In this document: positions 2,849 to 52,015 of the stretch, one piece after another | How positions within the stretch are numbered: position 1 is the stretch's first letter | How the letters are laid out: every line of letters starts with the position of its first letter | Assembly: GCA_002371155.1 (NCBI GenBank) | Contig: DFGC01000005.1 | Location: 20,024 to 84,023 of the forward strand | Direction: 5' to 3' | Origin: Alphaproteobacteria bacterium UBA3760 | Lineage (GTDB): Bacteria; Pseudomonadota; Alphaproteobacteria; Rs-D84 | DNA length: 64,000 nucleotides | Program-made: the position numbers and the translations under genes | Notes under the pieces: generated by a model | What the model was told of the DNA's origin: nothing | Database searches by the model: none | What the model saw: only the letters and a program-made list of their open reading frames with translations

Positions 2849-2877
2849 TTGCATTGTTTTTTTATTGTTGCTATGAT
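2849..2877 (+). promoter_or_regulatory. putative sigma70 promoter (TTGCAT-17-TATGAT) for the acyltransferase-lpxK-lpxC operon
   Basis: The -35 and -10 elements have 17-bp spacing about 30 nt upstream of the ATG at 2905. Confidence 0.3.
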
Positions 2878-2904
2878 TTTTTTATATTTATATGGTGGGC
2901 TGTT

Positions 2905-8031: not shown

Positions 8032-8035
8032 AAAA

Positions 8036-9661: not shown

Positions 9662-9663
9662 AA

Positions 9664-10734
9664 ATGGAAGAGTTAGAATTATTTTATGCAAAAATGGTGT
9701 TCAAATTTAATACAGAACGCCGGTTGGCTTTGATTCGCAAATTGGCATCATTGTTGCGGAATAATTTTTCTTTGATGGATGCGTTGGTCAGAATTGAAAA
9801 AATCGAATCTGATAATGGGCGAAAACCGGATGAACCGTATGCAATCGCAATGCGGATGTGGCAAAAAAATCTGGAAATGGGTATGAGTTTTTCTGATGCG
9901 ACGCGTGGTTGGTTGCCGGCGGAAGAAACATTATTGGTGACAAGTGGTAATGTTGCAGATTTGGTTGTTGCGCTGGAAAATGTCGATAAAGTTGTAAATG
10001 GAACAACCAAAATAAAGCGCGCAATGAGAAGCGCAATTGCGTACCCATTGTTTTTGTTGATTTTGACATTTGGTATTATTGTTATGGTTGGAATGTATTT
10101 GGTGCCACCGTTGGCGGATGTGGCGGGGCCAAATGTTGTGTGGCATGGCGCAGCAAATTTGTTGATAATGGTATCTGAATTTTCAATAAAATATTGGTCT
10201 GTGATTTTGGTTGCGTTTGTTTTGTTATGTGTTTTGGTGTGGTTCAGTTTGTCAAATTGGACTGGATGGTTGCGGGCAAAATTTGATAAATTGCCACCGT
10301 GGAATATATATAAAATGCATACATCGGTTGGGTGGTTGATGTCTTTGGCGGCTTTTGTTGCGGCGGGGGTGTCTATGCCGGATGCAATGCGTATTTTGGC
10401 GGATAATGCAAACAAATATTTGCGTGATATTTTAGACGAAACATTACGGTATATTGCAAATGGTGATAATTTAGGTGTCGCGTTGTCGAATACAGGTCGC
10501 GATTTCCCAAATCAAGAAATTATTGGCGATTTAACTATTTATTCTGAAATGAATGATTTTGATGCAAATATCGAAAGATTGGCAGATGATTATTTGCAAA
10601 ATTCTGTGCGAAAAATGGAATCGATATCCAGCACATTGAACAGTTTTGGAATTTTATTGGTATCGGCAATTATCGCATGGGTTGTGTTGGCAACTTTCCA
10701 AATGCAAGACCAAATTACAATGATGTTATCATAA
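9664..10734 (+). CDS. GspF/PilC-family inner-membrane platform protein (R64 PilR-like)
   Basis: 356 aa polytopic membrane protein with the GspF-type three-TM architecture and two cytoplasmic domains. It starts 3 nt after the ATPase gene. Confidence 0.7.
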   Translation: MEELELFYAKMVFKFNTERRLALIRKLASLLRNNFSLMDALVRIEKIESDNGRKPDEPYAIAMRMWQKNLEMGMSFSDATRGWLPAEETLLVTSGNVADLVVALENVDKVVNGTTKIKRAMRSAIAYPLFLLILTFGIIVMVGMYLVPPLADVAGPNVVWHGAANLLIMVSEFSIKYWSVILVAFVLLCVLVWFSLSNWTGWLRAKFDKLPPWNIYKMHTSVGWLMSLAAFVAAGVSMPDAMRILADNANKYLRDILDETLRYIANGDNLGVALSNTGRDFPNQEIIGDLTIYSEMNDFDANIERLADDYLQNSVRKMESISSTLNSFGILLVSAIIAWVVLATFQMQDQITMMLS

Positions 10735-15230: not shown

Positions 15231-15806
15231 TTAAAAATTATGCGTTAAACCCAATCCGTAAAATGCGTAAGAATGGTTGTCTTCGGCGGTGTTTGCGTTG
15301 GAAAAATGTTGTATAAACAGTTCAGTTGCCCATTCTTGGGTTATGTTCACACCAATTGTGACCTTGAATTGGAATAACAATTTTGCACCCAGGCGTTTGT
15401 TTTCTTTGACCTGTAATCCGACGCCGGCACCCATACCCATGTATAACCGTTTATATCGAAACAGGGCGATGTCTTCGGTGGCATATCCGATTGGAATTGT
15501 GTAATCGGTCCAATCCCAACCATTTTTACTGCCCAATCCCAATGTTTCAGAAATATTCAGACTGCGTCGTGCCGGAATACGAAAAAATGTCGTTGGTTGC
15601 GAATATGTTATTGTTCCAATATAAAAAGGCACAGGTCGCACCGGTGGTGGTAATAAAATTCCGGTATCGAAACCTTGGCCGATGCCGTAAAACATTTGGT
15701 TTTGGTATGTTCCCATAAATGGGTTGCGTTCGGGTAAAAACCAATCGTCGGCCAATGCGATGTTTGGTAAAATAATGGGTAATAAAAATAATAATCTTGT
15801 TTTCAT
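15231..15806 (-). CDS. outer-membrane lipid A 3-O-deacylase (PagL)-like beta-barrel
   Basis: Signal peptide, amphipathic beta-strand pattern, a C-terminal HFSNA (His/Ser active-site pair) and a terminal aromatic residue. The start is taken at MKTRLLF. Confidence 0.5.
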   Translation of the reverse strand: MKTRLLFLLPIILPNIALADDWFLPERNPFMGTYQNQMFYGIGQGFDTGILLPPPVRPVPFYIGTITYSQPTTFFRIPARRSLNISETLGLGSKNGWDWTDYTIPIGYATEDIALFRYKRLYMGMGAGVGLQVKENKRLGAKLLFQFKVTIGVNITQEWATELFIQHFSNANTAEDNHSYAFYGLGLTHNF

Positions 15807-16008
15807 ACCGACAATTTTATCATATTTTGCATATAAAAACAAACTGGAAAAAATAAATTTAATAAAATAATCACGCCGTGGCGCAAGCGAAAGAATTATA
15901 TAAAAATATTATCTATATGGCTATGATTATTAAAAAAAGCCCTTAAAAAAAGGCCATAATACTTGAATTATGACCGATATTGTTCTAATATGACCCAAAA
16001 GGTAAAAG

Positions 16009-17019
16009 ATGAATAAAGAATTTAATTTTTTGGTATATAACACTCCAAACCAAGATGTTAAAATAAATGCTATGGTACGGGATGACACAATCTGGCTTAC
16101 CCAAAAATCTATGGCTGAATTGTTCGGAGTTCAGATTCCCGCTATTAGCAAACACCTTAAGAATATATTTGAAGAAGGTGAATTAGATGAAAAAGTGGTT
16201 GTTTCCAAAATGGAAATAACCACTCAACATGGAGCAATATCCGATAAAACTCAAACATCAGAAACCCAATTTTATAATTTAGATGCTATTATATCTGTTG
16301 GATACAGGGTTAATTCTGTTAAAGCCACTAATTTCAGAATATGGGCAACCAAAGTTTTACACGAATATATTCAAAAGGGGTTTGTTCTGGATGACGAGAG
16401 ATTAAAACAAGGCAAACAAGCCTTTGGCAAAGATTATTTTCGTGAATTATTAGAACGTGTCCGTTCTATTCGTGCATCTGAACGCAGAATATATCAACAA
16501 ATCACAGATATATTTGCAGAATGCTGCATTGATTACGATAAGAATTCAGATATTACTAATAATTTCTATGCAACTGTTCAAAACAAATTCCATTATGCAA
16601 TTACTGGTCAAACTGCTGCTGAAATAATATATACAAAAGCGGACAGAACGAAAGACAATATGGGATTAACCACATGGAAACATTCACCAGATGGACGGAT
16701 TTTGAAATCAGATGTAGGGATTGCTAAAAACTATCTTTCTGAAAAAGAAATCAAACAGTTGGAACGAACTGTATCTGGATATTTTGATTATATTGAAGAT
16801 TTAATTGAACGAGAAAACACATTTACAATGGCCGAATTTGCAAACAGTGTAAACGAATTCTTGGCTTTCAGAAAATACGATGTACTGCCAGATAATAATC
16901 ATGGTCGTATATCAAATGCAAAGGCTATTAAACATGCAGAATCAGAATACGCTGCATTTAATAAAACCCAAAAAATAGAATCTGATTTTGATAAACAGGT
17001 TAAAAAAATGTTAAAATAA
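16009..17019 (+). CDS. RhuM-family virulence-associated protein
   Basis: Characteristic N-terminus NAMVRDDTIWLTQKSMAELFGVQIPAISKHLKNIFEEGEL and a conserved central region. Its codon usage is atypical for this window (CTT, AGC, GGA) and its local GC is lower. Confidence 0.6.
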   Translation: MNKEFNFLVYNTPNQDVKINAMVRDDTIWLTQKSMAELFGVQIPAISKHLKNIFEEGELDEKVVVSKMEITTQHGAISDKTQTSETQFYNLDAIISVGYRVNSVKATNFRIWATKVLHEYIQKGFVLDDERLKQGKQAFGKDYFRELLERVRSIRASERRIYQQITDIFAECCIDYDKNSDITNNFYATVQNKFHYAITGQTAAEIIYTKADRTKDNMGLTTWKHSPDGRILKSDVGIAKNYLSEKEIKQLERTVSGYFDYIEDLIERENTFTMAEFANSVNEFLAFRKYDVLPDNNHGRISNAKAIKHAESEYAAFNKTQKIESDFDKQVKKMLK

Positions 17020-17219: not shown

Positions 17220-17293
17220 CGAAAGCAGATGGTGCCCTAAGCAAGAATCGGACTTGCGACTCGTCCTTACCAAGGACGTGTTTTACCACTAGA
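17220..17293 (-). tRNA. tRNA-Thr(GGU)-like gene with aberrant T-loop (TCCGATT) and imperfect D-stem; possibly a pseudogene or element-borne tRNA
   Basis: The reverse complement is GCCCTAATAGTCTAGTGGTAAAACACGTCCTTGGTAAGGACGAGTCGCAAGTCCGATTCTTGCTTAGGGCACCA. It has perfect 7-bp acceptor, 5-bp anticodon and 5-bp T stems, anticodon GGU, U33 and an encoded CCA. Position 55 is C, and one D-stem pair is mismatched. Confidence 0.45.
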
Positions 17294-17398
17294 CTATTAG
17301 GGCAACAGCGGTATTATACCTGTTCGCGGATAAAAATCAACATAAAAACCATTTTTTACTAGATTTTTATTTTTTTACCATTATAATGCGTTTTGTTT

Positions 17399-17475
17399 GG
17401 CGGGATAGCTCAGCTGGTTAGAGCAGTGGAATCATAATCCACGTGTCGGGGGTCCGAGTCCCTCTCCCGCTACCA
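17399..17475 (+). tRNA. tRNA-Met (anticodon CAU; elongator Met or Ile-lysidine type)
   Basis: GGCGGGATAGCTCAGCTGGTTAGAGCAGTGGAATCATAATCCACGTGTCGGGGGTCCGAGTCCCTCTCCCGCTACCA folds as a canonical cloverleaf with an encoded CCA. Confidence 0.8.
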
Positions 17476-26837: not shown

Positions 26838-28610
26838 TTATTTCCTTAATAAACTTTGCACCGCCAATGGAAAATCGTTCGATTTTGCCAGGTATGAACC
26901 ACTGATTAAAAAATCTGCGCCGGCATTCCAACATTTTTGTGCGGTTTCTGGATTTATTCCGCCGTCCACAGATATTATGTATTTTAATCCATGTTTTTTT
27001 CGTGTTGTTGATAATGCCAATATTTTCTGTAATACAGATGTGTTAAATTCTTGGCCTGATGCGCCGGGGGCAACCCCCATAACCATAACTTCATCAACAT
27101 CACGCAAAATCGGAACAAGTTGTGTTATTGGGGTGTCTGGGTTTATTGCGACACCCGCGCGACGGCCCGTTGCACGAATCCCGCGTAATGCCGCACGAAC
27201 CCCAGTCGTGTTTAATGATAAAATAATTGTGTTCGCCCCAGCCTTTATCGCGTTTGCCGCCCAGACCGATGGGTTTTCGGTCATTAAATGAACATGTAAA
27301 TGAAAGTTTGTGTTTGCGCGGATTTCTTTTAATTCGGCAATACCGCCGGCAACATGCGGAACATAAAATCCGTCCATTATATCAACATGTATTGTTGATA
27401 TGCCGGCGGATGCAAATAATTTATATGTCATTGGTGATAACATATTAAAGCATAATGTTGATGGTGCGATTGGTATAAATTTTGGCTTTTGTTTTTTAGG
27501 TTTTCGCACAAATATTTTCGTGATTTTATTTATGAATTTTTCGTGGCGTGCCATGCGTGCCATATATGCGTCGCGCGCAGGTTTTTCCGAATCCCATATA
27601 TAATTAGAAATTGCTGTTATGGTTGCGTCGGCATGATGATTTTCAATCGGTAATCCAAATGCGTTTCCGACAAAGTCAACCACACCTTGGATTTGGGTGC
27701 CGCCGCCACTGATTATTATTTTGGTTGGTTGATATTTTGCAACATGTGGTTCGGCAGATTTTTTGATTTCTCCGATAATATCAACAATGCGTGGAACAAC
27801 AACATCGTTCACATCGCCGCGTGTGAAATCATATGCGGTATCGGCGGGGGTCATGCGGTCCATTGCGCGTGGAATTAAATTTGCAACCATGCGTTTTATG
27901 CGTTCGGCTTCGTCAAAATCGATATTTAATGATTTTGTTAAATCGTTTGTTGCGTTGGACATGCCCATAGGAATTTTTTCGTGCCAACATACACCGGAAT
28001 CGTTCCAAATTGAACATCCGGAAAATTCTGCGCCCATGTCGATAAACATTACGGTTTCGCCCGCGCGACGCAAAGTCATATTTTGCAAATATGCCGGGTC
28101 AAAAACACCGTCATATTGAATATGTGTTTTTCGCAATATGGATATAATTTCGTTTATGCGGTCGGTTTCATAACAAATGATTCCAAAAGTTGATATCAAT
28201 TGATGGTCGGTGTATCCCACCGGGGTTTGGATTTTTCGTGCAGATGCCGTATCGTATTGAAATGGCATTATGTGAATTGGTGTAAATCCCGACGGAAATG
28301 TCAATTTAGAAATCTGGGCACGAATATCACCATCGGTGATTTTATGCTCGCCGTTCCAAACGGTGTTTTGTTGTTGGTGCATAAATACAGATTTCCCAAA
28401 ATTCCCGGTTATGTATGCCGATTCAAAATGTGTGTTTAATTCATGCTCTAAATTATCAATTACTGATTTTATGGCAAATTGTTGGTTAAAACTGTCGCAC
28501 ATGGCGGTTGCGGATTTTACGATTTTTCCAGAAATCACACGATGCGCAATTCCGCGAACACATGATGTTCCGATGTCCAGACATAAAAAGCATGAATCAA
28601 GCAAGTTCAT
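26838..28610 (-). CDS. FtsA (actin-like cell-division ATPase) fused in-frame to ribulose-phosphate 3-epimerase (Rpe)
   Basis: The N-terminal 370 aa or so carry the FtsA motifs (LDIGTS phosphate-1, FIDMGAEFS phosphate-2, IISGGGTQIQG adenosine) and end in an amphipathic KFINKITKIFVRK helix. The same frame, without a stop or start codon, continues into an Rpe domain (IAPSTL..., HVDIMDGFYVPH, HLHVHLM, GADFLISGS). Confidence 0.6.
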   Translation of the reverse strand: MNLLDSCFLCLDIGTSCVRGIAHRVISGKIVKSATAMCDSFNQQFAIKSVIDNLEHELNTHFESAYITGNFGKSVFMHQQQNTVWNGEHKITDGDIRAQISKLTFPSGFTPIHIMPFQYDTASARKIQTPVGYTDHQLISTFGIICYETDRINEIISILRKTHIQYDGVFDPAYLQNMTLRRAGETVMFIDMGAEFSGCSIWNDSGVCWHEKIPMGMSNATNDLTKSLNIDFDEAERIKRMVANLIPRAMDRMTPADTAYDFTRGDVNDVVVPRIVDIIGEIKKSAEPHVAKYQPTKIIISGGGTQIQGVVDFVGNAFGLPIENHHADATITAISNYIWDSEKPARDAYMARMARHEKFINKITKIFVRKPKKQKPKFIPIAPSTLCFNMLSPMTYKLFASAGISTIHVDIMDGFYVPHVAGGIAELKEIRANTNFHLHVHLMTENPSVWAANAIKAGANTIILSLNTTGVRAALRGIRATGRRAGVAINPDTPITQLVPILRDVDEVMVMGVAPGASGQEFNTSVLQKILALSTTRKKHGLKYIISVDGGINPETAQKCWNAGADFLISGSYLAKSNDFPLAVQSLLRK

Positions 28611-40143: not shown

Positions 40144-42646
40144 AAATATTTTTTGTACGACAAATCCGGTGCATATGTTAGATGCGCTGGATAAAATTAT
40201 ATCTGAATCCGGGGTTGCGTTGTCGGATTGTTTAGTGTTTTTACCCAGTCGGCGTGCGGTTCGTGCGGCGGAAAAAATGTTCGTTGAGAAAAATTCTGGG
40301 CGTGCGATTATTTTGCCACGATTGGTTGCCCTGGGCGAAGGTGTTGATGATTTAGATGAAATCCAAGACGCGGATGTGTTCAGTAATATGGAACGCGTTG
40401 TTGTATTGGCGAAAATGTTATCGGCGGATGCGAATATCGGAAATATATCAACGGCATTACAAATTGCGCGTGATTTTGTGCGATGCCAAGATTACCTGGA
40501 AAACGAGGGCGTTTCATCACAAGACATAAATTGGGAAAGTTTGGTTGATGAAAAATATGCTGAACATTTTCAATCCAAGGCGAAATTGTTGAATATATTG
40601 ACCAATGTTTTGCCAAAAATTGCGGGTGGGCGCATGACGGCGGCGGCAAAAAGAAATATGGATGTGCGCGCATGGATACCCGAGATTGAAAAATATCCAT
40701 TGGTTGTGGTGTGTGGGTCAACCGCGTCTGTGCCGGCGACGGCGGATTTGATGGTGGCGGTTGCATCATCAAAAAATGGGCGGATTATTTTGCCGGGAAA
40801 AATAGATGGACGGATTTCTGATTTTGGATTAAATACAAATCCGTATAATGCGGAATATAAATTTTTGTCGCGTGTTGGTGTTGCGCCAACAGATGTTATA
40901 AAAATCGATTTTGGGAAATCTGGGATTGATTTTATGAATTATGCATTTGGAAATGATACGGCGGCATATAGTGGCGATAAAGATTTGGAAAATTGTCATT
41001 TGGTGTGTTGTGATACCGAAAGTATCGAGGCGGCGGCGGTTGCGGAAATTTGCAAATCTGCGTTGAAAAAAAATAAAACGGTTATGGTGATTACGCCGGA
41101 TGCCGCCGGAAATCAAAGAATTGAAAGTGCGTTTTTGGATTATGGTTTGGTTGCAGATTTTTCGGGTGCGAAAAGTGGTGCGTCGTGTGCCGCGGCGCGT
41201 GCGATTCTGAATTTGTTGGATTCGTGGATGGAATCGGGCAGTGGTAATTTTGACCGGTATTACACGATTGCAAATTTCGATTTGTTTGATACGGTTGCGC
41301 AAATTATTTCGGAAAATATCGATTTTATGCAACCTGAATTTGATATAGATTCGGTTGAATCTGGGCAAATTTGGTTGGCGATAAAAAATCTGTCTGAATT
41401 TTTAACACGATATGATATTAAATTGTCGTGTGCGGATGCGCGCGCATTTATTGCCGATGCGGCGGCGACGGTTGCGGTGCGCGATGTACCAAATGATAAT
41501 GCGAAAATTGTTGTGTTGGGAACTATCGAGGCGCGTATGCAAACCGCCGATGTTGTGATTTTGACAGGATTAAATGACGGAATGTTTCCGGCGCGCGGAT
41601 ATGAAAATGCGTGGTTGCCGGCGCGTGTGGCTGATGAAATCGGATTGCCCAGTCCCGACAGAAAAGTTTCTTTGATGTCGTTGGATTTTATGAATTTATC
41701 GTGTTGTGATGAAGTGTATTGGTTGCGGTCGCTAAATTCGGGTGGAACAAAAACATTGGAATCCAGGTTTTTATCCCGTGTTATGGCGCGTGGTGGCAAT
41801 ATAAATGAAAATGCCGCGAAAAAAATACTGGGCAATGTTTTGGCACGCGATGTGGTCGCGGAAAATCCGTTGGATTCGTCGGCGCCAAATCCAATCGCAA
41901 AATGGGGCGATGTTTATGTGACCGAATTAGAAAAACTGATTCATAATCCGTATGTGTTTTATGTGTCGCATATTTTAAGGTTGAAAAAAAATAAAGATTG
42001 GTGGATGGGGGTTGATGCGCGTGTGTTTGGTGATTTGGTGCATTCGGTGATTGAACATGCACGCGATTTTTCTGCGCCGGTTATTTTGGCGGAAATGGAC
42101 CGTGCCGCGCGTGAGGCCTTGCATTCGACAAATACAGAAAATTTGATGTTTCGTTTTTGGCATAAACGGTTTATTGAAATTGCAAAATTAGTGCAGGACA
42201 ATTCGGAATTGTTGAAAAAGTCTGTGCCGGAAATTGGGGGGCATGTTATTATAGATGGTGTTCGTGTTTGTGCGCGTGCCGACCGTGTTTGGGACGGTGG
42301 TGTTATGGATATTAAAACCGGTGATATGCCAACAAAATCGCAATTACAAGATGGTATGATGCCCCAGTTGCCGTTAGAGGCGTATATGTTAAAATCTGGT
42401 GGATTTAATGTAAAAATGGCAGACCCGTCGAAAACCCCGGACATGGTGTTTATGTATCTGAAAAATTCCAAAGAAAATATGTATTGGATTGCGCCAGAAG
42501 ATGTTGCGGGTATGATGGATGCGGCAATAAAAAAAACCAAAGAAGTTATTGATATGTTTGCCGTTGGAAACGCGCCATATGAATATCGCAAATCAAATGG
42601 CCCAAAATATAAAGATTTTGACGATTTGGCACGCGTTGATGATTAA
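40130..42646 (+). CDS. addB: AddB-like double-strand break repair protein (inactive-helicase N-domain + C-terminal RecB-type PD-(D/E)XK nuclease), no adjacent addA
   Basis: The N-terminal VFLPSRRAVRAAEKMF segment resembles alphaproteobacterial AddB. The C-terminal RADRVWDGGVMDIKTGD nuclease motif is also present. 838 aa is shorter than typical AddB. Confidence 0.5.
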   Translation: MVSNKNIFCTTNPVHMLDALDKIISESGVALSDCLVFLPSRRAVRAAEKMFVEKNSGRAIILPRLVALGEGVDDLDEIQDADVFSNMERVVVLAKMLSADANIGNISTALQIARDFVRCQDYLENEGVSSQDINWESLVDEKYAEHFQSKAKLLNILTNVLPKIAGGRMTAAAKRNMDVRAWIPEIEKYPLVVVCGSTASVPATADLMVAVASSKNGRIILPGKIDGRISDFGLNTNPYNAEYKFLSRVGVAPTDVIKIDFGKSGIDFMNYAFGNDTAAYSGDKDLENCHLVCCDTESIEAAAVAEICKSALKKNKTVMVITPDAAGNQRIESAFLDYGLVADFSGAKSGASCAAARAILNLLDSWMESGSGNFDRYYTIANFDLFDTVAQIISENIDFMQPEFDIDSVESGQIWLAIKNLSEFLTRYDIKLSCADARAFIADAAATVAVRDVPNDNAKIVVLGTIEARMQTADVVILTGLNDGMFPARGYENAWLPARVADEIGLPSPDRKVSLMSLDFMNLSCCDEVYWLRSLNSGGTKTLESRFLSRVMARGGNINENAAKKILGNVLARDVVAENPLDSSAPNPIAKWGDVYVTELEKLIHNPYVFYVSHILRLKKNKDWWMGVDARVFGDLVHSVIEHARDFSAPVILAEMDRAAREALHSTNTENLMFRFWHKRFIEIAKLVQDNSELLKKSVPEIGGHVIIDGVRVCARADRVWDGGVMDIKTGDMPTKSQLQDGMMPQLPLEAYMLKSGGFNVKMADPSKTPDMVFMYLKNSKENMYWIAPEDVAGMMDAAIKKTKEVIDMFAVGNAPYEYRKSNGPKYKDFDDLARVDD

Positions 42647-43413
42647 ACCAATTCTAACATTAAACCGCAATGGTCGGTTGGTTTTTGTGCGGTGCGTGGG
42701 CATAAATCGATTTCGCAATTTTTAACCATTTTATGCGCGGTTTTATTACATAAAAAATAATCCAATCGCAATCCTTGTTTTTTACCAACGGTGTCGCCAC
42801 CGCGATAACCATACCATGTGTAATCTGTATCATTTGGGTGTAATTCGCGCCATATGTCCGTCCAACCGTTATCCAACCAAGATTGCATTATTTCGCGTGC
42901 AGCGGGTGCCGAAATAGATGAACCAATATAATTTTTTGGATTCCATATATCATGGTCGGTTATTGCAACATTAAAATCGCCCGCGATAATAACCGGTTCG
43001 GGTGAGTTTATATATTGTTCGATATGTTTTGTAAATGCACGCATCCATTCCAATTTATATGCAAATTTTGGTGATTCAATATTGTCGCCATTTGGCATAT
43101 ATGTGTTGATAATCCGCACGCGTCCGTCAATAACACATTCAATCATGCGGGAATTTACATCGGCATAATTGGGGATTCCAAAAGATACATCTTCGATAGA
43201 ATTTTTAGAAAATACCGCAACGCCGTTCCATGATTTTTGACCAAAAACCTTGATATTGTATCCGAATTCGTCGAACAGCATAAAAGGAAAGTTCGCGTTA
43301 TCGACCTTTAATTCTTGGACCAAAATTGTGTCGTATTCGTTTGTGCGCAATATGTCCATAAAACTTTCCACATGGGCGCGAATAGAGTTGATATTTATAG
43401 TCAATATTTTCAT
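42643..43413 (-). CDS. xthA: exodeoxyribonuclease III
   Basis: KILTININSIRA N-terminus and the conserved Glu, Asp and His residues of the EEP-family AP endonucleases. 256 aa. Confidence 0.85.
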   Translation of the reverse strand: MKILTININSIRAHVESFMDILRTNEYDTILVQELKVDNANFPFMLFDEFGYNIKVFGQKSWNGVAVFSKNSIEDVSFGIPNYADVNSRMIECVIDGRVRIINTYMPNGDNIESPKFAYKLEWMRAFTKHIEQYINSPEPVIIAGDFNVAITDHDIWNPKNYIGSSISAPAAREIMQSWLDNGWTDIWRELHPNDTDYTWYGYRGGDTVGKKQGLRLDYFLCNKTAHKMVKNCEIDLCPRTAQKPTDHCGLMLELV

Positions 43414-43482
43414 GTTTGATTTCCTTGTCTTTTCGTTCTATAATATACCCCGTCCAATATAAAAACAACAAGGAAATTTACT

Positions 43483-45063
43483 ATGAATATGAATAATATG
43501 TTGGAAATGGCTGTTCGGCAATGGCCCGAAAATCTGTTTCTGGTGCGCGAAGGTGTTTCGTATTCTGAATTTATGGATATGGTGCGCGCGCGCGCGGTGA
43601 CATTGATGGACAACGGGATTAAACCCGGGGATACGGTCGGTGTGTTATCACATAATATTCCACAATTTCCATTGACGCTGTTTGCGATATGGTATGTTGG
43701 TGCGAAATGTTTGATGCTGGATACGAATTTAACACCGTTTGAATATGATAATATGGCGGATGCCGCCGGATGCAAATTTGTGTGCGCGGAATCGTCGTTT
43801 TTCTATAAAACGGATAAATTCAAATTTATCGATATTACCGCCAAAGATGGTCCGGTAAATCCGATGCTGCATCCATATAATTTCCAAGACAACGATGTTG
43901 CAACATTGTCTTTTACATCTGGGTCAACAGGCGTGCCCAAAATTGTGCCATTGACACACTATAATTTAATAGAGTGTGCAAATTCGTTGGAAGATATGGC
44001 GGAATATTTTGGTTCGGGTGATATTATGTATGGATTTTTACCACTGTATCATATATTCGGTTTTGCCATTGGAATTTTGGCGACGGTGCATTTTGGCGCG
44101 GGTATCGTGTTGCAACCAACAATAAATCCGAAATACATTTTGGACGATTTCAAAAAGTTCCGTCCGCATGTGATTCCGGCTGTGCCACGGTTATGGGAAA
44201 TGTTCAGAAATAAAATTATGGACAATCTGAAAACGCAAAAAAAATGGAGTATCGTCGATTTTATTTTGCGTAATCGTGTTCGTATAAATGATATGGGGCT
44301 GGGATTTTTTGTTCGTAAAGTCCAAGAACCAATTTTGGATATTTTCGGTGGTCGTGTGCGTTTGTTGATTGCCGGTGGTGCCGCCACCAAGCCCGAGGTT
44401 GAAACATTTTACGAAAACCTGGGGTTGGCATTTATCCAAGGTTATGGTTTGACGGAAACGGTTGGTCCAATTTGTATATCAAAGCCAAATAAAAAACGTA
44501 TGGCGTTTTCTGTGGGGGCGCCAACAACAAATAACGAGTGTGAAATTCGTGATAAAGACGAAAATGGCATTGGGGTTTTGTGGCTGCGTGGACACCAGGT
44601 TTTTGGCGGATATATGAATAATGACGCGGTGAATAAAGAGGTGTTCGATGAACGCGGGTTCTTTAATACCGGGGATTTGGTGTATATGGACAAAAATGGC
44701 GAATTGCACTTTGCGGGGCGTAAAAAACAGGTCATCGTTCTGGATAGTGGTAAAAATGTTTATCCAGATGAATTAGAGGCTATGTTTTTGGATATCCCGG
44801 GTGTTAAAAATGTCGCGGTGTTTGAACATCGGGTCAAAGACAAAACGGTTGCATACGGCGTGTTTTCGGTCGATAAGGATATGACAATGGAAAAATTGGT
44901 TGCCGAGGTTAGTGCGGCAAATAAAAAGGTTGCATCGTATAAATGGGTGACCCATTTTGCAATGACAACTGATGATTTGCCGATGACATCAACCCAGAAA
45001 ATAAAACATCATGTTGTTCGTCAAAATTTAATTGATGGTAAATATCCAATTAGACATGAATAA
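43483..45063 (+). CDS. adenylate-forming enzyme (acyl-CoA/acyl-ACP synthetase-like, ANL superfamily), paralog 1
   Basis: Motifs TSGSTGVPK, GYGLTETVG, TGDLVYMDKNGELHFAGRKK. 526 aa. Confidence 0.65.
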   Translation: MNMNNMLEMAVRQWPENLFLVREGVSYSEFMDMVRARAVTLMDNGIKPGDTVGVLSHNIPQFPLTLFAIWYVGAKCLMLDTNLTPFEYDNMADAAGCKFVCAESSFFYKTDKFKFIDITAKDGPVNPMLHPYNFQDNDVATLSFTSGSTGVPKIVPLTHYNLIECANSLEDMAEYFGSGDIMYGFLPLYHIFGFAIGILATVHFGAGIVLQPTINPKYILDDFKKFRPHVIPAVPRLWEMFRNKIMDNLKTQKKWSIVDFILRNRVRINDMGLGFFVRKVQEPILDIFGGRVRLLIAGGAATKPEVETFYENLGLAFIQGYGLTETVGPICISKPNKKRMAFSVGAPTTNNECEIRDKDENGIGVLWLRGHQVFGGYMNNDAVNKEVFDERGFFNTGDLVYMDKNGELHFAGRKKQVIVLDSGKNVYPDELEAMFLDIPGVKNVAVFEHRVKDKTVAYGVFSVDKDMTMEKLVAEVSAANKKVASYKWVTHFAMTTDDLPMTSTQKIKHHVVRQNLIDGKYPIRHE

Positions 45064-45088
45064 ATGGTTTTTATAAAGGAATATAAAA

Positions 45089-46669
45089 ATGAATATGTAT
45101 GAATTGTTGGAAAAAAATATAAAAAGAAATCCGAAAACGGTTTTCTTGGTGCGTGAAAATATTACTTTTGAAGAATTACCAAAATATGTGCGTGCGCGCG
45201 CAACTACATTGGCCAAGGCGGGTATAAAACCCGGTGATACGGTTGGGTTGTTGTCGCATAATTTGCCTGAATTTGTGTTCAGTTTGTTCGCAATTTGGTA
45301 TTTGGGTGCGCGTGTTTTGTTGTTGGATACAAATTTGACTTCGGTTGAATATGATAATATGACGGAATTGACCGATTGTAAATTTGTTGTTGCGGAAAAG
45401 TCTTTCTTTTACAAAACAAAAAATTTCAAATTTATCGATATCCAGGCCCCAGATACCGAAACAGATGAATCGTTGAAACCGTATAAAATCAAAGATTCTG
45501 ATATTGCGACATTGTCGTTCACATCGGGTTCGACGGGAACACCAAAAATTGTGCCGTTGACACATAAAAATTTGGTTTCTTGTTCGGAAAGTTTGGAAAG
45601 TTTGAATATATTTTTGCGCCCGGGTGAAATGCTGTATGCGTTTTTGCCGCTGTATCATGTGTTTGGGTTTGCCGTTGGATTTTTGGCACCATTGCATTTT
45701 GGTATGGGTATGTTGTTGCAATCAACAATCAATCCAAATGCAATTTTGCAAGATTTTGCAAAATATAAACCACATGTTATTCCGGCGGTGCCGAAATTGT
45801 GGGAAATTTTCCGCAAGAAAATCATCGATGGTGTGCGCGAAAAGAAAAAATGGTGGTTGGTGTCTTTCATTATGAATCATCAAAAAACTTTGCGTGCAAT
45901 CGGTTTGGGCAAATTGGTTGATAAAGTATTGAATCAAATTCGTGCGGTGTTTGGTGGTCGCGCCCGTTGTTTGGTCGCAGGTGGTGCCGCAACCAAGCCC
46001 GAGGTTGAAAAATTCTATACTCAATTAGGGATGGATTTTGTCCAAGGTTATGGTATGACCGAAACGGTTGGACCAATCTGTTGTTCGAAACCGGTTAAAA
46101 AACGCGTTCCGTTTGCGTTTGGTGCGCCGTTGGGTGATTGCTGTTGCGAAATTCGTAATGCTGATGAAAATGGTATCGGTATGTTATGGGTCAAAGGCAA
46201 CCAGGTGTTCGGTGGGTATCTGAATAATGACGCGGCGAATAAAGAATGCTTTGATAAAAACGGATTCTTTTGCACGGGGGATTTGGTGTCGATAGACAAA
46301 AATGGTGAATATCATTTTGCTGGTCGTAAAAAACAAGTCATTGTTTTGGATTCGGGTAAAAATGTCTATCCTGATGAATTAGAAGGATTATTCATCGAAA
46401 TCCCGGGTGTTAAAAATGTCGCCGTGTTCGAGCACGAGGTCAAAGGCAAAACTGTATCATATGGTGTGTTTTCGGTTGAACCGGATATGACCATGGAACG
46501 GTTGTCTGCGGAAATTGCCCAGAAAAATAAAAAGGTTGCGTCATATAAATGGGTGACCCATTTTGCGATGACGACTGATGATTTGCCGGTGACATCCACA
46601 CAAAAGGTTAAACATCATGTTGTGCGTAAATATTTAATGGATGGTAAATATCAAGAAAAGGATATTTAA
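45089..46669 (+). CDS. adenylate-forming enzyme, paralog 2
   Basis: The same motif set (TSGSTGTPK, GYGMTETVG, TGDLVSIDKNGEYHFAGRKK). It lies 25 nt after paralog 1. Confidence 0.65.
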   Translation: MNMYELLEKNIKRNPKTVFLVRENITFEELPKYVRARATTLAKAGIKPGDTVGLLSHNLPEFVFSLFAIWYLGARVLLLDTNLTSVEYDNMTELTDCKFVVAEKSFFYKTKNFKFIDIQAPDTETDESLKPYKIKDSDIATLSFTSGSTGTPKIVPLTHKNLVSCSESLESLNIFLRPGEMLYAFLPLYHVFGFAVGFLAPLHFGMGMLLQSTINPNAILQDFAKYKPHVIPAVPKLWEIFRKKIIDGVREKKKWWLVSFIMNHQKTLRAIGLGKLVDKVLNQIRAVFGGRARCLVAGGAATKPEVEKFYTQLGMDFVQGYGMTETVGPICCSKPVKKRVPFAFGAPLGDCCCEIRNADENGIGMLWVKGNQVFGGYLNNDAANKECFDKNGFFCTGDLVSIDKNGEYHFAGRKKQVIVLDSGKNVYPDELEGLFIEIPGVKNVAVFEHEVKGKTVSYGVFSVEPDMTMERLSAEIAQKNKKVASYKWVTHFAMTTDDLPVTSTQKVKHHVVRKYLMDGKYQEKDI

Positions 46670-46671
46670 TC

Positions 46672-48246
46672 ATGAATATGTACCAATTCTTTGAACAAAC
46701 CATGGAAAAGTGTCCAACGACACTTTTCCTGGTCAGGGAAAAAATTAGTTTTGCCGATTTTCCAAAACTGGTTCGGGCGCGTGCAACAACATTGAAAAAG
46801 ATTGGTGTGCAATATGGTGATACATTGGGGGTGTTGGCGCATAATATTCCTGAATTTATAACTACTTTGTTTGCGGCGTGGTATCGTGGCGCACGCGTTT
46901 TGTTATTGGATACGAATTTAACAAATTCAGAATACGATAATATGACGAAATTGACCCAATGCAAATTGGTCGCGGCGGAAAAATCTTTTTTTTATGATGC
47001 GGCGGGGTTCGAATTTTTCGATATTCAAACGGTTGATGATGAAACCGACCCTGAATTAAAACCGTATCCGTTGGATGCAAATGATATTGCAACTTTGTCA
47101 TTTACATCGGGTTCGACGGGAACACCGAAAATCGTGCCATTGACGCATTTTAATTTAATAGAGTGCGCAAATTCGTTTGATGATTTTAACCAATGGTTTC
47201 AGCCGGGTGGGGTGCTGTATGGGTTTTTGCCGTTGTATCATATATTTGGTTTTGCGGCGGGATTTTTGGCACCGTTGCATTTTCAAATGGGAATTTTGTT
47301 GCAACCGTCAATAAATCCAAAATTGATTTTGTCTGATTTCAAAGAATATCGGCCGCATGTGATTCCGTCTGTGCCGAAAATGTGGGAATTGTTCCGCAAA
47401 AAAATTATTGAAGAAATCAAGGCGCAGAAAAAATGGTGGATTGTATCGTTCATATTGAAAAATCAAAAATGGTTGCAGAAAATTGGTTTTGGTTTTATCG
47501 TGCGACGCGTGCAAAAGCAAATTTGTGCGGTGTTCGGGGGGCGGGTTCAGTTGATGATTGCCGGTGGTGCCGCCACCAAGCCCGAGGTTGAAAAATTCTA
47601 TAACGATTTGGGTATCGCGTTTATCCAAGGTTATGGCATGACCGAAACGGTTGGTCCGTTTTGTGGTTCGCGCCCGGTGAAAAAGCGTATCCCGTATGCG
47701 TTTGGCGCGCCGTTGGGAAATAACGAGTGTGAAATTCGCGATAAAGATGAAAATGGTATCGGTATGTTGTGGGTGCGTGGACACCAGGTTTTTGGTGGGT
47801 ATATGAATAACGATGCCGCCAATGCGGAATCTTTTGATGAACGCGGATTTTTCTGCACTGGGGATTTGGTGTATATGGACAAAAACGGCGAGTTGCACTT
47901 TGCTGGTCGTAAAAAACAGGTCATCGTTCTGGACAGTGGTAAAAATGTTTATCCCGATGAATTAGAGGCTATGTTTTTGGACATTCCGGGTGTTAAAAAT
48001 GTCGCGGTGTTCGAACATCAGGTCAATGGTAAAACCGTTGCGTATGGTGTGTTTTCGGTTGAACCCGATATGACAGCAGATAAATTGAGCAAGGCGGTTG
48101 CGGATGCCAATAAACGCGTTGCCAAATATAAATGGGTGACGCATTTTGCGATGACAACGGATGATTTGCCGATGACATCGACGCAAAAGGTGAAGCATCA
48201 TCTGGTTAAACAGAATTTAATCGATGGCAAATACAACGAAATATAA
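46672..48246 (+). CDS. adenylate-forming enzyme, paralog 3
   Basis: The same motifs. It lies 2 nt after paralog 2. About 100 nt near its 3' end is nearly identical to paralog 1. Confidence 0.65.
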   Translation: MNMYQFFEQTMEKCPTTLFLVREKISFADFPKLVRARATTLKKIGVQYGDTLGVLAHNIPEFITTLFAAWYRGARVLLLDTNLTNSEYDNMTKLTQCKLVAAEKSFFYDAAGFEFFDIQTVDDETDPELKPYPLDANDIATLSFTSGSTGTPKIVPLTHFNLIECANSFDDFNQWFQPGGVLYGFLPLYHIFGFAAGFLAPLHFQMGILLQPSINPKLILSDFKEYRPHVIPSVPKMWELFRKKIIEEIKAQKKWWIVSFILKNQKWLQKIGFGFIVRRVQKQICAVFGGRVQLMIAGGAATKPEVEKFYNDLGIAFIQGYGMTETVGPFCGSRPVKKRIPYAFGAPLGNNECEIRDKDENGIGMLWVRGHQVFGGYMNNDAANAESFDERGFFCTGDLVYMDKNGELHFAGRKKQVIVLDSGKNVYPDELEAMFLDIPGVKNVAVFEHQVNGKTVAYGVFSVEPDMTADKLSKAVADANKRVAKYKWVTHFAMTTDDLPMTSTQKVKHHLVKQNLIDGKYNEI

Positions 48247-48247
48247 T

Positions 48248-48380
48248 GGCACATCTGCTGGATTCCGGCTCGCTCATGTAGCACTTGTACACTACGCTCG
48301 CCGGAATCTTCGCATCTGCACCATTATCTTTCGTTGGGATAATTTACGCTCGCAAACAACGGCGCATTTGTTCCGTTCTC
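48248..48380 (+). repeat. solo copy of 103-bp palindromic repeat family R1 (GGCACATCTGCTGGATTCCGGCTCG...CGCCGGAATC...)
   Basis: It shares more than 80% identity with the tandem copies at 51738..52015. It contains the 9-bp inverted repeat GATTCCGGC/GCCGGAATC. Confidence 0.45.
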
Positions 48381-48523
48381 TTTCCATATTTAGTTTTTTT
48401 CGCATTTGGTTTTTTTTCTATTTGGAATATTTGTTATATTTTGTGATAATTATTGTATTGCGCGGAATATTAAAAAGTCCCATAATCTATGCGTATAGAA
48501 AAACAAAATAAAGGAGAAATAAC

Positions 48524-48865
48524 ATGAAAAAATTGTTTTTAATTTTGCCAGTTATGGCATTGGCTGCATGCTCACAAGAAAAGACTTTGGTGTCTGGTTG
48601 TGAAAAGATTGTTGCTAGTGAAAACGGTGATGTTTATAAATGTCCAATGTCTGAAGAATTGGCTGCAATTCAAGCTATGGAAGCAAACGCAATGTTTAAT
48701 ACATTGGATGGTTTGGATGTTGCTGCGGTGGCTGCGGATGCAGAAAATGTATATGTTAATATTTATGGTACATGTGAACAGGAAGGTCAGGTTGCTTACC
48801 GTGTAATGGTAAAGAACCCTGTTTTCAATGGCAACACAATGTATGCTGTTGAAGTATGCCGTTAA
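48524..48865 (+). CDS. small lipoprotein with atypical (GCT/GGT/GTT-rich) codon usage
   Basis: Strong RBS AAAGGAGAAA and lipobox LAAC. Its codon choice is unlike neighbouring genes, which prefer GCG, GTG and TTG. Confidence 0.45.
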   Translation: MKKLFLILPVMALAACSQEKTLVSGCEKIVASENGDVYKCPMSEELAAIQAMEANAMFNTLDGLDVAAVAADAENVYVNIYGTCEQEGQVAYRVMVKNPVFNGNTMYAVEVCR

Positions 48866-48884
48866 TTTATAAATGCTACAAAAA

Positions 48885-48906
48885 ACCGCCATATTGGCGG
48901 TTTTTT
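48885..48906 (+). terminator. rho-independent terminator (CCGCCAatatTGGCGG + T6)
   Basis: Perfect hairpin and T-run 20 nt after the lipoprotein stop. Confidence 0.55.
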
Positions 48907-48908
48907 AT

Positions 48909-48994
48909 CCGCCTTCGCCGGTAAGGACGGGGTGTTGGGTTCAAGATAACGAACAATGCTACGGCGCGATGATCGATTTTTCTAAATAAAAACG
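48909..48994 (+). ncRNA. candidate small RNA / repeat family R2, copy 2, ending in bidirectional terminator AACGGTATaaaaaaTACCGTT
   Basis: It shares the CCGCCTTCGCCGGTAAGG and ACGAACAATGCTACGGCGCGA blocks and a TTTCTAAA tail with the 2564..2665 copy. The terminator hairpin has a T-run on both strands. Confidence 0.3.
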
Positions 48995-49028
48995 GTATAA
49001 AAAATACCGTTTTTATTAATTAAAATCG

Positions 49029-50372
49029 TCATTTTCCCAAACACAATTGTGAAAATGTTGCGTCCATGACATCGGTCGCCGTGATAGTGCCGAGTATTTT
49101 TCCGATGTTGTCCGCGGCGCGTCGCACATGTTCGGCAAATATATCATAATTGCCGTCGAATGTCGTTAGGGCAGAATTTAATTCGCGTTCTGTATCCGAC
49201 AATAATTTATATGTGCGGGCATTTATAACCAAATTGTTTTCTGCGCCGTCCAAAGTATTATGCATGTATTCGCGAATTTTGTTTAATAATTCATCTATGC
49301 CGTCGCCGGTTTTTGCCGATGTATAAATTGCATTTTTGTTATTGCGGGTTTTGATTTCGTCGCATTTGTTGATAACAATGATTTCTTTGTTTTGTGTGTC
49401 CGAAAAGACCACCCCGTCGCTTCGCGCCACCCCTCCACAGGAGGGGAACTCGTTATCAGCATAAATGTGTAAAACTAAATCCGCATTGTCGAGTTCTGTT
49501 TTTGTTCTGTCGATTCCCATTTGTTCGATTTCGTCGCCGGTTTCACGCAATCCGGCGGTGTCAGATAAATTTACCAAATACCCGTCGATGTCGATTTGTG
49601 CAGATATTACATCGCGTGTTGTGCCGGGTGTATTCGACACGATTGCGCGGTTCGTTCCAACCAATTTATTAAACAGTGATGATTTGCCGACATTTGTTTC
49701 GCCAACGAATACTATATTAAACCCATGTGCGATTGCGCGCGATACATTATAACGCGAAAGTGATTTTTTAATATCGGTGTGTAATTCTTTGGTTTTACTT
49801 AAAATTTTTTCAGATATGTTTGCCGGTAAATCGGTTTCATCATAATCCAAAGTTGCGGCGGCATATGCGGCGATTTCAATCATTTGTTCGCGCCATGTGT
49901 TGTAAATCTTGCCGTCGCCACCCAACATCGATTTTAATGCAAATTTGCGTTGGCGGTCGGTTTGTGCGTCTAATAATGCCGCCAATCCGTCCACATCAGA
50001 TAAATCCATTTTGCCGTTCATAAATGCGCGACGCGAAAATTCGCCGGGGGTCGCCATGCGCATATTATGACCTGACAAAAATTCAAATATTTTGTTGATT
50101 ACCGCCGTTGCGCCATGTGTGTGAATTTCGATGATGTCGGTTCCGGTAAAAGATGCGGGCGCGGCAAAATAAATAACAATACATTGGTCGATTAAATCGC
50201 CCGTATCATCGCGCAGATTGCAAAAATATGCATGACGGGGTTTTACCACCCCAGTGTGGGGGAATATCAGTTTTGTTGCAAAATCATGCAAATTGTCGCC
50301 AGATATACGGATGACCGCAACACCGGATTTTCCAAAACCACTGGATAAAGCAAATATTGTATCGTTATTCAT
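49029..50372 (-). CDS. mnmE: tRNA modification GTPase MnmE (TrmE)
   Basis: N-terminus IFALSSG, G-domain motifs GETNVGKSSL and DTAG, and the C-terminal CLGK tetrapeptide. Confidence 0.85.
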   Translation of the reverse strand: MNNDTIFALSSGFGKSGVAVIRISGDNLHDFATKLIFPHTGVVKPRHAYFCNLRDDTGDLIDQCIVIYFAAPASFTGTDIIEIHTHGATAVINKIFEFLSGHNMRMATPGEFSRRAFMNGKMDLSDVDGLAALLDAQTDRQRKFALKSMLGGDGKIYNTWREQMIEIAAYAAATLDYDETDLPANISEKILSKTKELHTDIKKSLSRYNVSRAIAHGFNIVFVGETNVGKSSLFNKLVGTNRAIVSNTPGTTRDVISAQIDIDGYLVNLSDTAGLRETGDEIEQMGIDRTKTELDNADLVLHIYADNEFPSCGGVARSDGVVFSDTQNKEIIVINKCDEIKTRNNKNAIYTSAKTGDGIDELLNKIREYMHNTLDGAENNLVINARTYKLLSDTERELNSALTTFDGNYDIFAEHVRRAADNIGKILGTITATDVMDATFSQLCLGK

Positions 50373-51719: not shown

Positions 51720-51737
51720 GTAAAATAAAAATATAAC

Positions 51738-52015
51738 GGCACATCTGCTTGATTCCGGCTCGTTTATGTAGCATTTGTACACTGCACTCGCCGGAATCGT
51801 CGCATCTGTACCGTTCTATTTTTATTTTTAATTTGATTGCGGCACATCTGCTGGATTCCGGTTCGTTTATGTAGCATTTGTACACTGCACTCGCCGGAAT
51901 CGTCGCATCTGTACCGTTATCTTTTTATTTTTAATTTGATTGTGGCACATCTGGTCGATTCTGGCTCGTTTATGTAGCGTTTGTGCGCTACGCTTGCAAA
52001 CAACTGCGCATCTAT
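51738..52015 (+). repeat. three tandem copies (period 103 bp) of palindromic repeat family R1
   Basis: Units start at 51738, 51841 and 51944. Each carries the GATTCCGGC...GCCGGAATC inverted repeat and ends in a T-rich tract (TTTTTATTTTTAATTTGATTG). The third unit is diverged. Confidence 0.6.

Follow-up and report, generated by a model that had tools for sequence, protein, structure and literature searches.

Three tandem ANL genes, encoding putative fatty-acid-activating isozymes, in an uncultured alphaproteobacterium of the order Rs-D84

Why would a bacterium with a very small genome keep three neighbouring genes for what looks like one and the same enzyme? Reduced genomes usually shed paralogues, and up to three copies of a 1.6-kb gene represent about 0.5% of a genome of about 0.9 Mb. 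The question is raised by a stretch of 64,000 nucleotides from Alphaproteobacteria bacterium UBA3760 (GenBank assembly GCA_002371155.1, contig DFGC01000005.1, positions 20,024 to 84,023; hereafter the window, in whose coordinates all positions are given). Three intact genes encoding adenylate-forming enzymes of the ANL (AMP-binding) superfamily lie there head to tail on the forward strand: g1 (43483–45063, 526 aa), g2 (45089–46669, 526 aa) and g3 (46672–48246, 524 aa), separated by 25 nt and 2 nt, respectively. An earlier note on this DNA, made from the sequence alone, had described three consecutive genes of 524–526 aa with these spacers, and its coordinates were exact. With moderate confidence, we consider the array to be an operon of fatty-acid-activating isozymes that would feed scavenged fatty acids into phospholipid and lipid A.

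The three copies are all well-formed ANL genes. Pfam searches matched AMP-binding (PF00501) in g1, g2 and g3 with E-values of about 2e-60 to 5e-66, well over the gathering score, while the C-terminal domain AMP-binding_C (PF13193) obtained 22–24 bits, slightly below the cutoff of 24.5 bits, yet covered the full length of the model. Both domains that characterize the superfamily are thus present in each protein. The translations all contain TSGSTG(V/T)PK (A3, the P-loop), GYG(L/M)TETVG (A5), TGDLV (A7), GRKK (A8, the hinge) and TSTQK (with the A10 lysine), and the extended motif TGDLV..DKNGE.HFAGRKK can be read in all three. These core motifs are invariant in 43 relatives and in every clade consensus. 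Between them, g1, g2 and g3 share 65–70% identity in protein and 69–72% in DNA. The ratio of nonsynonymous to synonymous substitution rates (dN/dS) against orthologues is 0.07–0.08 for g1, 0.12–0.14 for g2 and 0.08–0.11 for g3, and every copy is under strong purifying selection. The proposal of the earlier note that all three genes look functional is therefore well founded, with motifs and A10 lysine intact and dN/dS of 0.07–0.14. The loss of the lysine or of the P-loop in two copies, which it had named as a sign of pseudogenisation, was not seen in any of the three genes.

Two other explanations were discarded. Pseudogenisation was rejected, since open reading frames and motifs are intact and dN/dS is close to 0.1. 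An assembly artefact was also rejected, the same array being present on an independent JGI contig (L001) and two- or three-copy arrays in more than 30 other metagenome-assembled genomes (MAGs). An AlphaFold2 model (mean pLDDT 78, about 90 in the N-terminal domain and about 50, i.e. low confidence, in the C-terminal domain) displays the two-domain ANL fold, with a Foldseek probability of 1.00 and TM-scores of about 0.6–0.7 against many ANL structures. In addition, some 50 residues (235–290) of the window proteins form an extra helical insertion, at which every alignment with the PDB is split. The maintenance of three copies under such selection points to a function that is central to the life of these uncultured gut symbionts.

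To whom does this array belong, and how old is it? All of the nearest relatives, proteins as well as loci, are from uncultured Alphaproteobacteria of the gut that bear the name Candidatus Enterousia. As the earlier note had recommended, we determined the copy number in relatives, from 82 sequences: the window, the identical metagenome contig L001 and 80 related loci. One copy was found in 48 of them, two copies in 8 and three in 26. The ANL site itself is constant, divergent from xthA and, in most loci, followed by a convergent mnmE. The pairing of xthA with an ANL gene is kept in virtually all loci that extend upstream, even where the remaining synteny is rearranged. From a neighbour-joining tree and clade-to-clade identities, we distinguished five paralogue types (A, B, C and two D) that are 64–70% identical to each other in protein, against 77–90% within a type. 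Type A comprises g1 of the window, every single-copy gene (in the tree, g1 groups with all 48 of these orthologues) and, from each array, one member; g1 is thus orthologous to the single-copy gene of every Enterousia locus examined. Type B, to which g2 belongs, is a clade common to 28 other genomes, while type C, that of g3, occurs only in the subgroup of the window (8 genomes in the tree and L082); the other copies fall into the two D types.

The order of the genes also varies: A-B-C in the group of the window, D-B-A in 17 genomes, A-D in 4 and B-A in 4. The slot between xthA and mnmE has been remodelled several times, possibly by unequal crossing-over or by independent duplications. In the type-A subtree, the species with several copies, which were sampled from rumen and horse gut, make up a single clade; single-copy species include human, mouse and deer lineages and some ruminant ones. 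Two MAGs of a recent study of Enterousia (PMC12306168) are among the loci, one of 0.89 Mb with three copies (L031, JBKSMS) and one of 0.75 Mb with two (L008, JBKSNB). The duplications are old, because the paralogues are only 64–70% identical and form orthologous clades over many species. The ancestral, universally conserved copy is g1, while g2 and g3 are old derived isozymes.

If the copies are old, do they still do the same thing? We defined as diagnostic the positions that are conserved at 85% or more within each clade and different between clades. There are 22 such positions, all located in residues 165–407 and none in 408–526. They cluster in the helix after the P-loop (165, 169, 172 and 179), after the A4 histidine (201, 205 and 212) and after A5 (330 and 332). 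Residues 330–332 read I-C-I in type A, I-C-C in B, F-C-G in C and F-C-C in D. In a HMMER alignment, I330 falls at or beside V341 of tobacco 4CL2 (a 4-coumarate:CoA ligase), the residue deleted in the engineered mutant of PDB 5BSW, which has feruloyl-adenylate bound. This pattern fits enzymes that diverged where the acyl substrate is handled and that have the acceptor side in common, and is consistent with the idea of the earlier note that the triplicate enzymes diversified in substrate handling. Since the differences are confined to the N-terminal domain with the acyl pocket and the C-terminal domains are near-identical, the three enzymes probably take different fatty acids but deliver them to one acceptor.

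It could be argued that the copies are simply redundant, the array being a dosage amplification and the sequence differences neutral drift. The catalytic motifs are indeed identical in all copies, the C-terminal domains are near-identical, and a copy number that varies from 1 to 3 among related species means that extra copies are dispensable in some lineages. However, each type is a clade spanning many species, with a clear gap between identities within and between types, each copy has a dN/dS of about 0.1, and 22 sites have been fixed differently between clades, all at 165–407. Moreover, neutral redundant copies would not persist in genomes of less than 1 Mb. We therefore regard redundancy as quite improbable and retain functionally distinct isozymes as the better description.

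Not all of the gene has diverged at the same pace. The earlier note had suggested computing identity along the three genes, with uniform divergence as an argument against conversion. Divergence is not uniform: in sliding windows, the nucleotide identity between g1 and g3 climbs to 88–93% over about 44650–44830, against 77–81% for the pairs with g2. An informative-site maximal-segment test with 5000 permutations delimited a tract, located on the forward strand at 44684–44830 in g1 (codons 401–450, in which lie the A8 hinge GRKK and the strands that open the C-terminal domain) and at 47873–48019 in g3. Over these 147 nt, g1 and g3 are 93.9% identical, against 78.9% for g1 and g2 and 78.2% for g2 and g3. 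Of 33 informative sites in the tract, 26 group g1 with g3, against 33% gene-wide, a score that none of the 5000 permutations reached. A GENECONV-style search for the longest run was dropped; it selected short fragments elsewhere and missed the tract because of about nine mismatches scattered within it. The earlier note had placed a tract of roughly 100 nt, about 95% identical, at 44731–44830 in g1 and 47911–48010 in g3. Its g1 coordinates and identity hold; its g3 coordinates are 9 nt off, ungapped identity being only 26% at that place, and the in-register partner is 47920–48019. It had also rightly described g2 as more diverged there (about 79% vs. 94%).

Several observations indicate that g1 was the donor and g3 the recipient. 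When codons 401–450 are left out, the sequences of the eight A-B-C genomes separate cleanly into three clades of orthologues, g1, g2 and g3. In the tree of the tract only, g1 and g3 of the window become sisters (bootstrap 0.83), nested in the g1 clade beside g1 of L002 and L020, which implies a transfer from g1 to g3. In the tract, g3 of the window shows an identity of 0.93 to g1 of the window, against 0.78–0.86 to its own orthologues, including that of L082, the closest to it in protein sequence. The conversion signal between g1 and g3 was not found in L002, L020 or L082. The closeness of g3 to g1 of the same genome and the absence of the signal in relatives mean that the conversion is younger than the split from the sampled relatives (dS between orthologues of about 0.75–1.05). 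It is not very recent, however, since dS between g1 and g3 is 0.39 in codons 401–450, against 1.21 in codons 1–400 and 1.27 in codons 451–526. Thus, of the recent gene conversion or duplication that the earlier note had invoked, the conversion is genuine according to permutations, dS and tree, but it is not very recent, and the duplications are old. It is a lineage-specific conversion from g1 to g3.

The tract encodes the most conserved segment of the protein (the hinge, A8), where nucleotide identity is 79–87% among all paralogues; chance or stronger purifying selection might then produce a similar picture. This is most improbable, because the excess identity lies at synonymous sites. Third-position identity between g1 and g3 is 0.83 in the tract vs. 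0.53, dS is 0.39 vs. 1.07–1.28 for the pairs with g2, and g1 and g3 have in common an AGT serine codon where g2 has TCG. Furthermore, g2 is under equal protein constraint, yet has no excess identity, and neither the clustering of the sites (0 of 5000 permutations) nor the resemblance of g3 to g1 rather than to its own orthologues is accounted for by constraint.

The same segment appears to have been converted in other genomes. In the tract tree, g1 of L003 pairs with g3, the three copies of L005 fall together and g3 of L006 lies among g1 sequences. In addition, the mean excess of identity within genomes, over all paralogue pairs, is maximal at codons of about 381–470, in the A-B-C group as well as in the D-B-A group. 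The beginning of the C-terminal domain is thus a recurrent hot spot of conversion, likely because it is the sole stretch in which the paralogues are still about 80% identical. Such DNA is a substrate for RecA-type recombination between copies, and in the lineage of the window a tract of about 147 nt was copied from g1 to g3. The window itself encodes recA, ruvA, ruvC and an addB-like nuclease gene.

What are the substrates of these enzymes? We searched exhaustively for homologues among 1.8 billion cluster representatives. The best ones outside the family are a few standalone ANLs of 524–529 aa from other gut Alphaproteobacteria and from Candidatus Termititenax, with 37–43% identity. Next, among the matches with E<1e-75, come mostly proteins of about 815–850 aa in which an ANL is fused to a phosphopantetheine-binding carrier domain and to a PlsC-type acyltransferase, with 37–38% identity and E-values down to 5e-101. 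Among the listed matches of about 815–930 aa, the PlsC-type acyltransferase domain (PF01553) was found in 37 of 38 and the carrier domain (PF00550) in 32 of 38, behind the ANL domain. The fusions retain the carrier serine (DSL) and the acyltransferase motif NHxSxLD, and have IVLxSGKNVYPxELE in common with the window proteins. Such a fusion would be a self-contained route from fatty acid to acyl-adenylate, acyl-carrier and (lyso)phospholipid, a functional analogue of Aas of Escherichia coli. Following Rosetta-stone logic, the standalone Enterousia enzymes would most likely activate fatty acids for glycerolipid acylation. That many of the nearest outside homologues are fusions of this kind is what makes fatty-acid scavenging the best reading of the array.

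These fusions form a large and apparently unstudied family in their own right (proteins P0213–P0345; locus L083, 6001–8523). A further protein of 753 aa, known from a single Logan contig (P0210), carries an ANL fused to a lipoate/biotin-ligase-type domain (BPL_LplA_LipB).

The biology of the host is in line with scavenging. Candidatus Enterousia has been placed in the order Rs-D84, with genomes of about 0.75–1.0 Mb, no routes for making amino acids, nucleotides or lipids, and neither tricarboxylic acid (TCA) cycle nor respiration; these bacteria are described as purely fermentative and probably partner-dependent (2025 study, PMC12306168). It is because of this reported lack of lipid biosynthesis that we propose a scavenging role. 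Each enzyme would adenylate a fatty acid with ATP and then pass the acyl group to a thiol acceptor, either holo-acyl carrier protein (holo-ACP) or coenzyme A (CoA). Fatty acids acquired from outside would thereby enter the assembly of membrane phospholipid and lipid A. As for the acceptor, we tentatively name ACP first; CoA is also possible, on slightly weaker grounds, and the remainder goes to other acceptors. To our knowledge, no sequence signature distinguishes ACP-loading from CoA-loading ANLs; the carrier domain and PlsC acyltransferase found in many of the nearest outside homologues speak indirectly for ACP.

Fatty-acid activation also suits a host that reportedly lacks lipid biosynthesis yet encodes LpxC, LpxK and a DUF374 protein of an acyltransferase superfamily; as the window encodes all three, acylated lipid A is made. 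The earlier note had used the proximity of lpx, pagL-like and lol genes as support for host-derived fatty acids or lipid A and lipoprotein remodelling. These genes belong to other transcription units at a distance of about 11–40 kb and show no co-variation with the array. Given this distance and their absence from the conserved neighbourhood, they are no evidence of linkage, and the idea is better supported by the reported metabolism of the host and by the ANL-carrier-PlsC homologues.

Several points weigh against this interpretation. No NCBIfam cutoff was reached among more than 100 matches, the best being NF004837 (PRK06187) with 198–216 bits vs. 476. The best relatives in the PDB are 4-coumarate-, feruloyl-, oxalyl- and malonyl-CoA ligases and MenE (19–23% identity). 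A Foldseek search of the PDB with the AlphaFold2 model returned generic ANL matches, fatty-acid, aromatic-acid and ACP-loading enzymes not being distinguished, and the weakness of this model in the C-terminal domain (pLDDT about 50) means that no geometry of pocket or acceptor is drawn from it. Neither in the window nor in any related locus did a gene for ACP, PlsC, PlsX/Y or fab turn up near the array. For ACP and PlsC, hidden Markov models (HMMs) of the two corresponding regions of the fusions, carrier and acyltransferase, were run on the window and 85 loci; their sole match in the window was weak (E 0.007), to the DUF374 protein at 2776–3684, so that the nearby ACP or acyltransferase gene looked for as a sign of acyl-ACP synthetase function was not seen. 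That type II fatty acid synthesis (FASII) is absent comes from a paper on related MAGs, not from the source genome, and the ANL subfamily is biochemically uncharacterised. We found no functional study of an ANL-carrier-PlsC fusion or of Rs-D84 lipid metabolism in the literature, and the genomic context of the outgroup homologues (L083–L085) is informative only for the fusion architecture. The single transcription unit is read from gene spacing, and the conversion tract is short (147 nt), with boundaries chosen from the data and a bootstrap of 0.83.

As the relatives of known structure listed above rank at least as high as fatty-acid enzymes, a non-fatty-acid substrate is possible. The enzymes might act on other carboxylic acids of the herbivore gut, such as hydroxycinnamates or phenylpropanoates, dicarboxylates, bile acids or short-chain acids, for uptake trapping or detoxification. 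Besides the sequence and fold matches to 4-coumarate-CoA ligases, feruloyl-CoA synthetase, MenE and oxalyl- and malonyl-CoA synthetases, the position of diagnostic residue 330 at or beside V341 of 4CL and the rumen and horse-gut origin of the multi-copy arrays would agree with such substrates. Identities of 19–23% are nevertheless non-discriminating, and the long-chain fatty acyl-CoA synthetase (FACS) of Thermus (1ULT) and an acyl-ACP synthetase (8I8D) score alike. This alternative also leaves aside that many of the closest homologues outside the family are fused to a carrier domain and a glycerolipid acyltransferase of the PlsC type. Moreover, the host possesses hardly any pathway by which aromatic CoA esters could be metabolised further, and one copy is kept in every Enterousia locus, including those of human and mouse gut lineages. 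We thus find it unlikely.

Even among fatty-acid enzymes, another role can be considered, that of ordinary FadD-type acyl-CoA synthetases supplying beta-oxidation for energy. The best NCBIfam matches are indeed named long-chain-fatty-acid--CoA ligase and JGI labels relatives as long-chain acyl-CoA synthetase, but the scores are all far under the curated cutoffs, including that of the FadD model. No fad genes, and hence no beta-oxidation context, were found in the window or adjacent to the array in the related loci examined. In addition, Enterousia is reported to be purely fermentative, without TCA cycle and respiratory chain, and there would therefore be no sink for the reducing equivalents of beta-oxidation. 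An energetic role is very unlikely, and fatty-acid activation for lipid assembly remains the reading that we prefer.

This preferred reading can be extended to a broader hypothesis, for which we claim only a low probability. The ANL family would be the sole entry point for all acyl chains in Enterousia, a diderm, the isozymes splitting the scavenged pool between them, and the Gram-negative envelope would be built independently of FASII. The organism keeps the acyl-ACP-dependent lipid A pathway (LpxC, LpxK and a DUF374/LpxJ-like acyltransferase), and the enzymes would load scavenged fatty acids onto ACP. New isozymes would have been born repeatedly in herbivore-gut lineages, giving the five types with their differing pocket residues. 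One split could direct 3-hydroxy acids to lipid A and ordinary long-chain acids to phospholipids, for example.

If the array does encode scavenging isozymes, it would account for the building of both phospholipid and lipid A in a bacterium that reportedly has no lipid synthesis. It would also provide a handle for cultivation, by indicating which lipids to supply, and for inhibition. The enzymes themselves are an uncharacterised subfamily of a well-known superfamily and behave like usual tandem paralogues; the unusual element is the host, whose genome of less than 1 Mb, reportedly devoid of lipid biosynthesis, has time and again gained and retained additional copies of this enzyme.

Are the three genes transcribed together? 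Upstream, the ANL gene or array has as its conserved neighbour, in divergent orientation, the xthA-like exonuclease III gene (42643–43413, reverse strand; Pfam Exo_endo_phos, E 1e-22), in agreement with the xthA that the earlier note had placed on one side. In a scan of 42500–49200, the top-ranked promoter site was TTGATT-17-TATAAT in the xthA-g1 intergenic region (43416–43444, forward strand), a sigma-70-like consensus match at 10 of 12 positions. An AAGGA Shine-Dalgarno sequence precedes each start, located upstream of g1, in the 25-nt spacer for g2 and at the end of the g2 coding sequence for g3. The same scan gave no convincing terminator within the array. Downstream of g3, a small gene predicted to encode a lipoprotein of 113 aa (48524–48865, forward strand; signal MKKLFLILPVMALAAC; no Pfam match) is followed by an intrinsic-terminator-like hairpin (48880–48906, forward strand), with 12-nt arms AAAAAACCGCCA and TGGCGGTTTTTT that are 100% complementary and a T-run at its end. 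In L002, L003, L005, L020, L066 and L082, an equivalent GC hairpin with a T-run lies directly 3' of g3. The common strand, the short spacers, the one good promoter match in front of the array and the restriction of terminators to the region behind the last gene are all consistent with an operon, and we infer co-transcription of g1, g2 and g3. The lipoprotein gene may be co-transcribed with the array; in L004, too, a homologous start comes after g3, whereas other relatives have none at this place.

The palindromic repeat that the earlier note had called R1 does lie on the other side of the array, directly after the g3 stop codon and overlapping it (48243–48335, forward strand). The region 48240–48400 folds as a long hairpin (-43.3 kcal/mol, z = -4.1). 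This repeat was not found after g3 in 8 related A-B-C genomes, which have a terminator or a lipoprotein gene there instead; the lineage of the window has acquired this palindromic repeat of about 85 nt between the g3 stop and the lipoprotein gene. Rfam detected only tRNAs in the window and nothing at the ANL locus.

The repeat belongs to a REP/MITE-like (repetitive extragenic palindrome/miniature inverted-repeat transposable element) family of about 85 nt whose copies are about 90% identical, at 48243–48335, 51733–51830 and 51836–51935, with the core also present at 51944 and a diverged partial copy at about 55006. About three copies are in tandem between yebC and ruvC, and one abuts the stop of g3. 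The core occurs 4 times in the window, against 0.3 expected. It is also found directly after the stop of the single ANL gene in L037 (10424) and L049 (3183), though absent from this place in the closest relatives of the window, which suggests repeated insertion at gene ends or terminators.

Elsewhere in the window, a run of lipid A genes (2812–5550, forward strand) encodes the DUF374 protein (LPLAT superfamily), LpxK and LpxC, which is notable in an organism reported to be without lipid synthesis. DUF374 corresponds to LpxJ, a family of late acyltransferases acting on lipid A, and the window protein is possibly of this type. Acyl-ACP is the donor used by LpxA, by LpxD and by the late acyltransferases. 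A homologue of the PagL-like lipid A 3-O-deacylase (15231–15842, reverse strand) is separate from this run. A cluster resembling type IV pilus or type II secretion systems (5997–10734, forward strand), with a PilO-like protein, a T2SSE ATPase and a T2SSF platform protein, might bear on the partner-dependent way of life that has been proposed. A gene for a 'virulence protein' of the RhuM family (16009–17019, forward strand; E 5e-103) lies in a low-GC stretch (34–35%) and adjoins two tRNAs (17233–17303, reverse strand, and 17399–17472, forward strand); the region may be a small integrated element. Next to ftsQ, an open reading frame of 590 aa (26838–28610, reverse strand) matches FtsA over residues 189–326 and ribulose-phosphate 3-epimerase over residues 396–574, and is either a real FtsA-Rpe fusion or the result of a stop lost between two genes. 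Finally, GC skew is positive in all 2-kb bins (0.05–0.33) of the window (1–64000) and the genes are mostly on the forward strand, so that the entire window probably belongs to one leading-strand replichore.

How does the array compare with known systems? The closest functional model is that of the acyl-ACP synthetases, Aas of E. coli, AasS of Vibrio harveyi, AasN of Neisseria and AasC of Chlamydia (for the biology of AasS, see PMC12086093 and PMC11271967). The window proteins have the same two-domain ANL fold and would use the same two-step chemistry, and the role proposed for them is the same, i.e. the activation of outside fatty acids for membrane lipids; AasS (PDB 8I8D) is among the Foldseek matches. 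Aas of E. coli is moreover fused to a PlsC-type acyltransferase, as are many of the nearest homologues of the window proteins. In contrast, the sequences are no more than about 20% identical, the enzymes of the window stand alone, without acyltransferase or carrier domain, and three tandem isozymes stand here in place of one gene.

The ANL-PP-binding-PlsC fusions, such as that of Candidatus Termititenax dinenymphae (GBR77523.1, P0219), are nearer in sequence, with 37–38% identity over the whole ANL region, and share with the window proteins the insertion after the VP(R/K)LxE helix as well as the motif IVLxSGKNVYPxELE. The Enterousia proteins, however, stop after the ANL C-terminal domain. If they act like the fusions, carrier and acyltransferase must be separate proteins, none of which is encoded near the array.

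FadD and the other long-chain acyl-CoA synthetases (PRK06187, PRK05605; ttLC-FACS of Thermus, 1ULT) provide the best NCBIfam names and a structural match (1ULT/1V26). The segment RGFFNTGDLVYMDKNGELHFAGRKK can be aligned in register with the 25-residue FACS signature of FadD of E. coli. The window proteins nevertheless score less than half the curated cutoff (216 vs. 476 bits) and are without beta-oxidation context, in a host without respiration. The 4-coumarate:CoA ligases (PDB 3TSY, 5BSM/5BSW) are the top PDB sequence matches (E 6e-35 with a single sequence, 1e-47 with a profile), and their post-A5 loop with V341 corresponds to diagnostic residues 330/332. They differ by an identity of only 21–23%, by the insertion of about 50 residues (235–290) in the window proteins and by the phenylpropanoid pathway context that the Enterousia host lacks.

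Gene conversion between bacterial paralogues is a general process, known for example from tuf genes and rRNA operons. The tract described here is similar to other conversions in tandem bacterial paralogues, being short, copied between paralogues of one genome, limited to a segment of identity high enough for homologous recombination, and recurring in related genomes. It differs in that only about 9% of the ANL gene is homogenised, the diverged N-terminal domain being untouched, so that each paralogue keeps its identity and concerted evolution of the array does not take place. The array offers a clean natural example of domain-restricted conversion, in which the domain on the acceptor side is repeatedly homogenised while the domain on the substrate side diverges.

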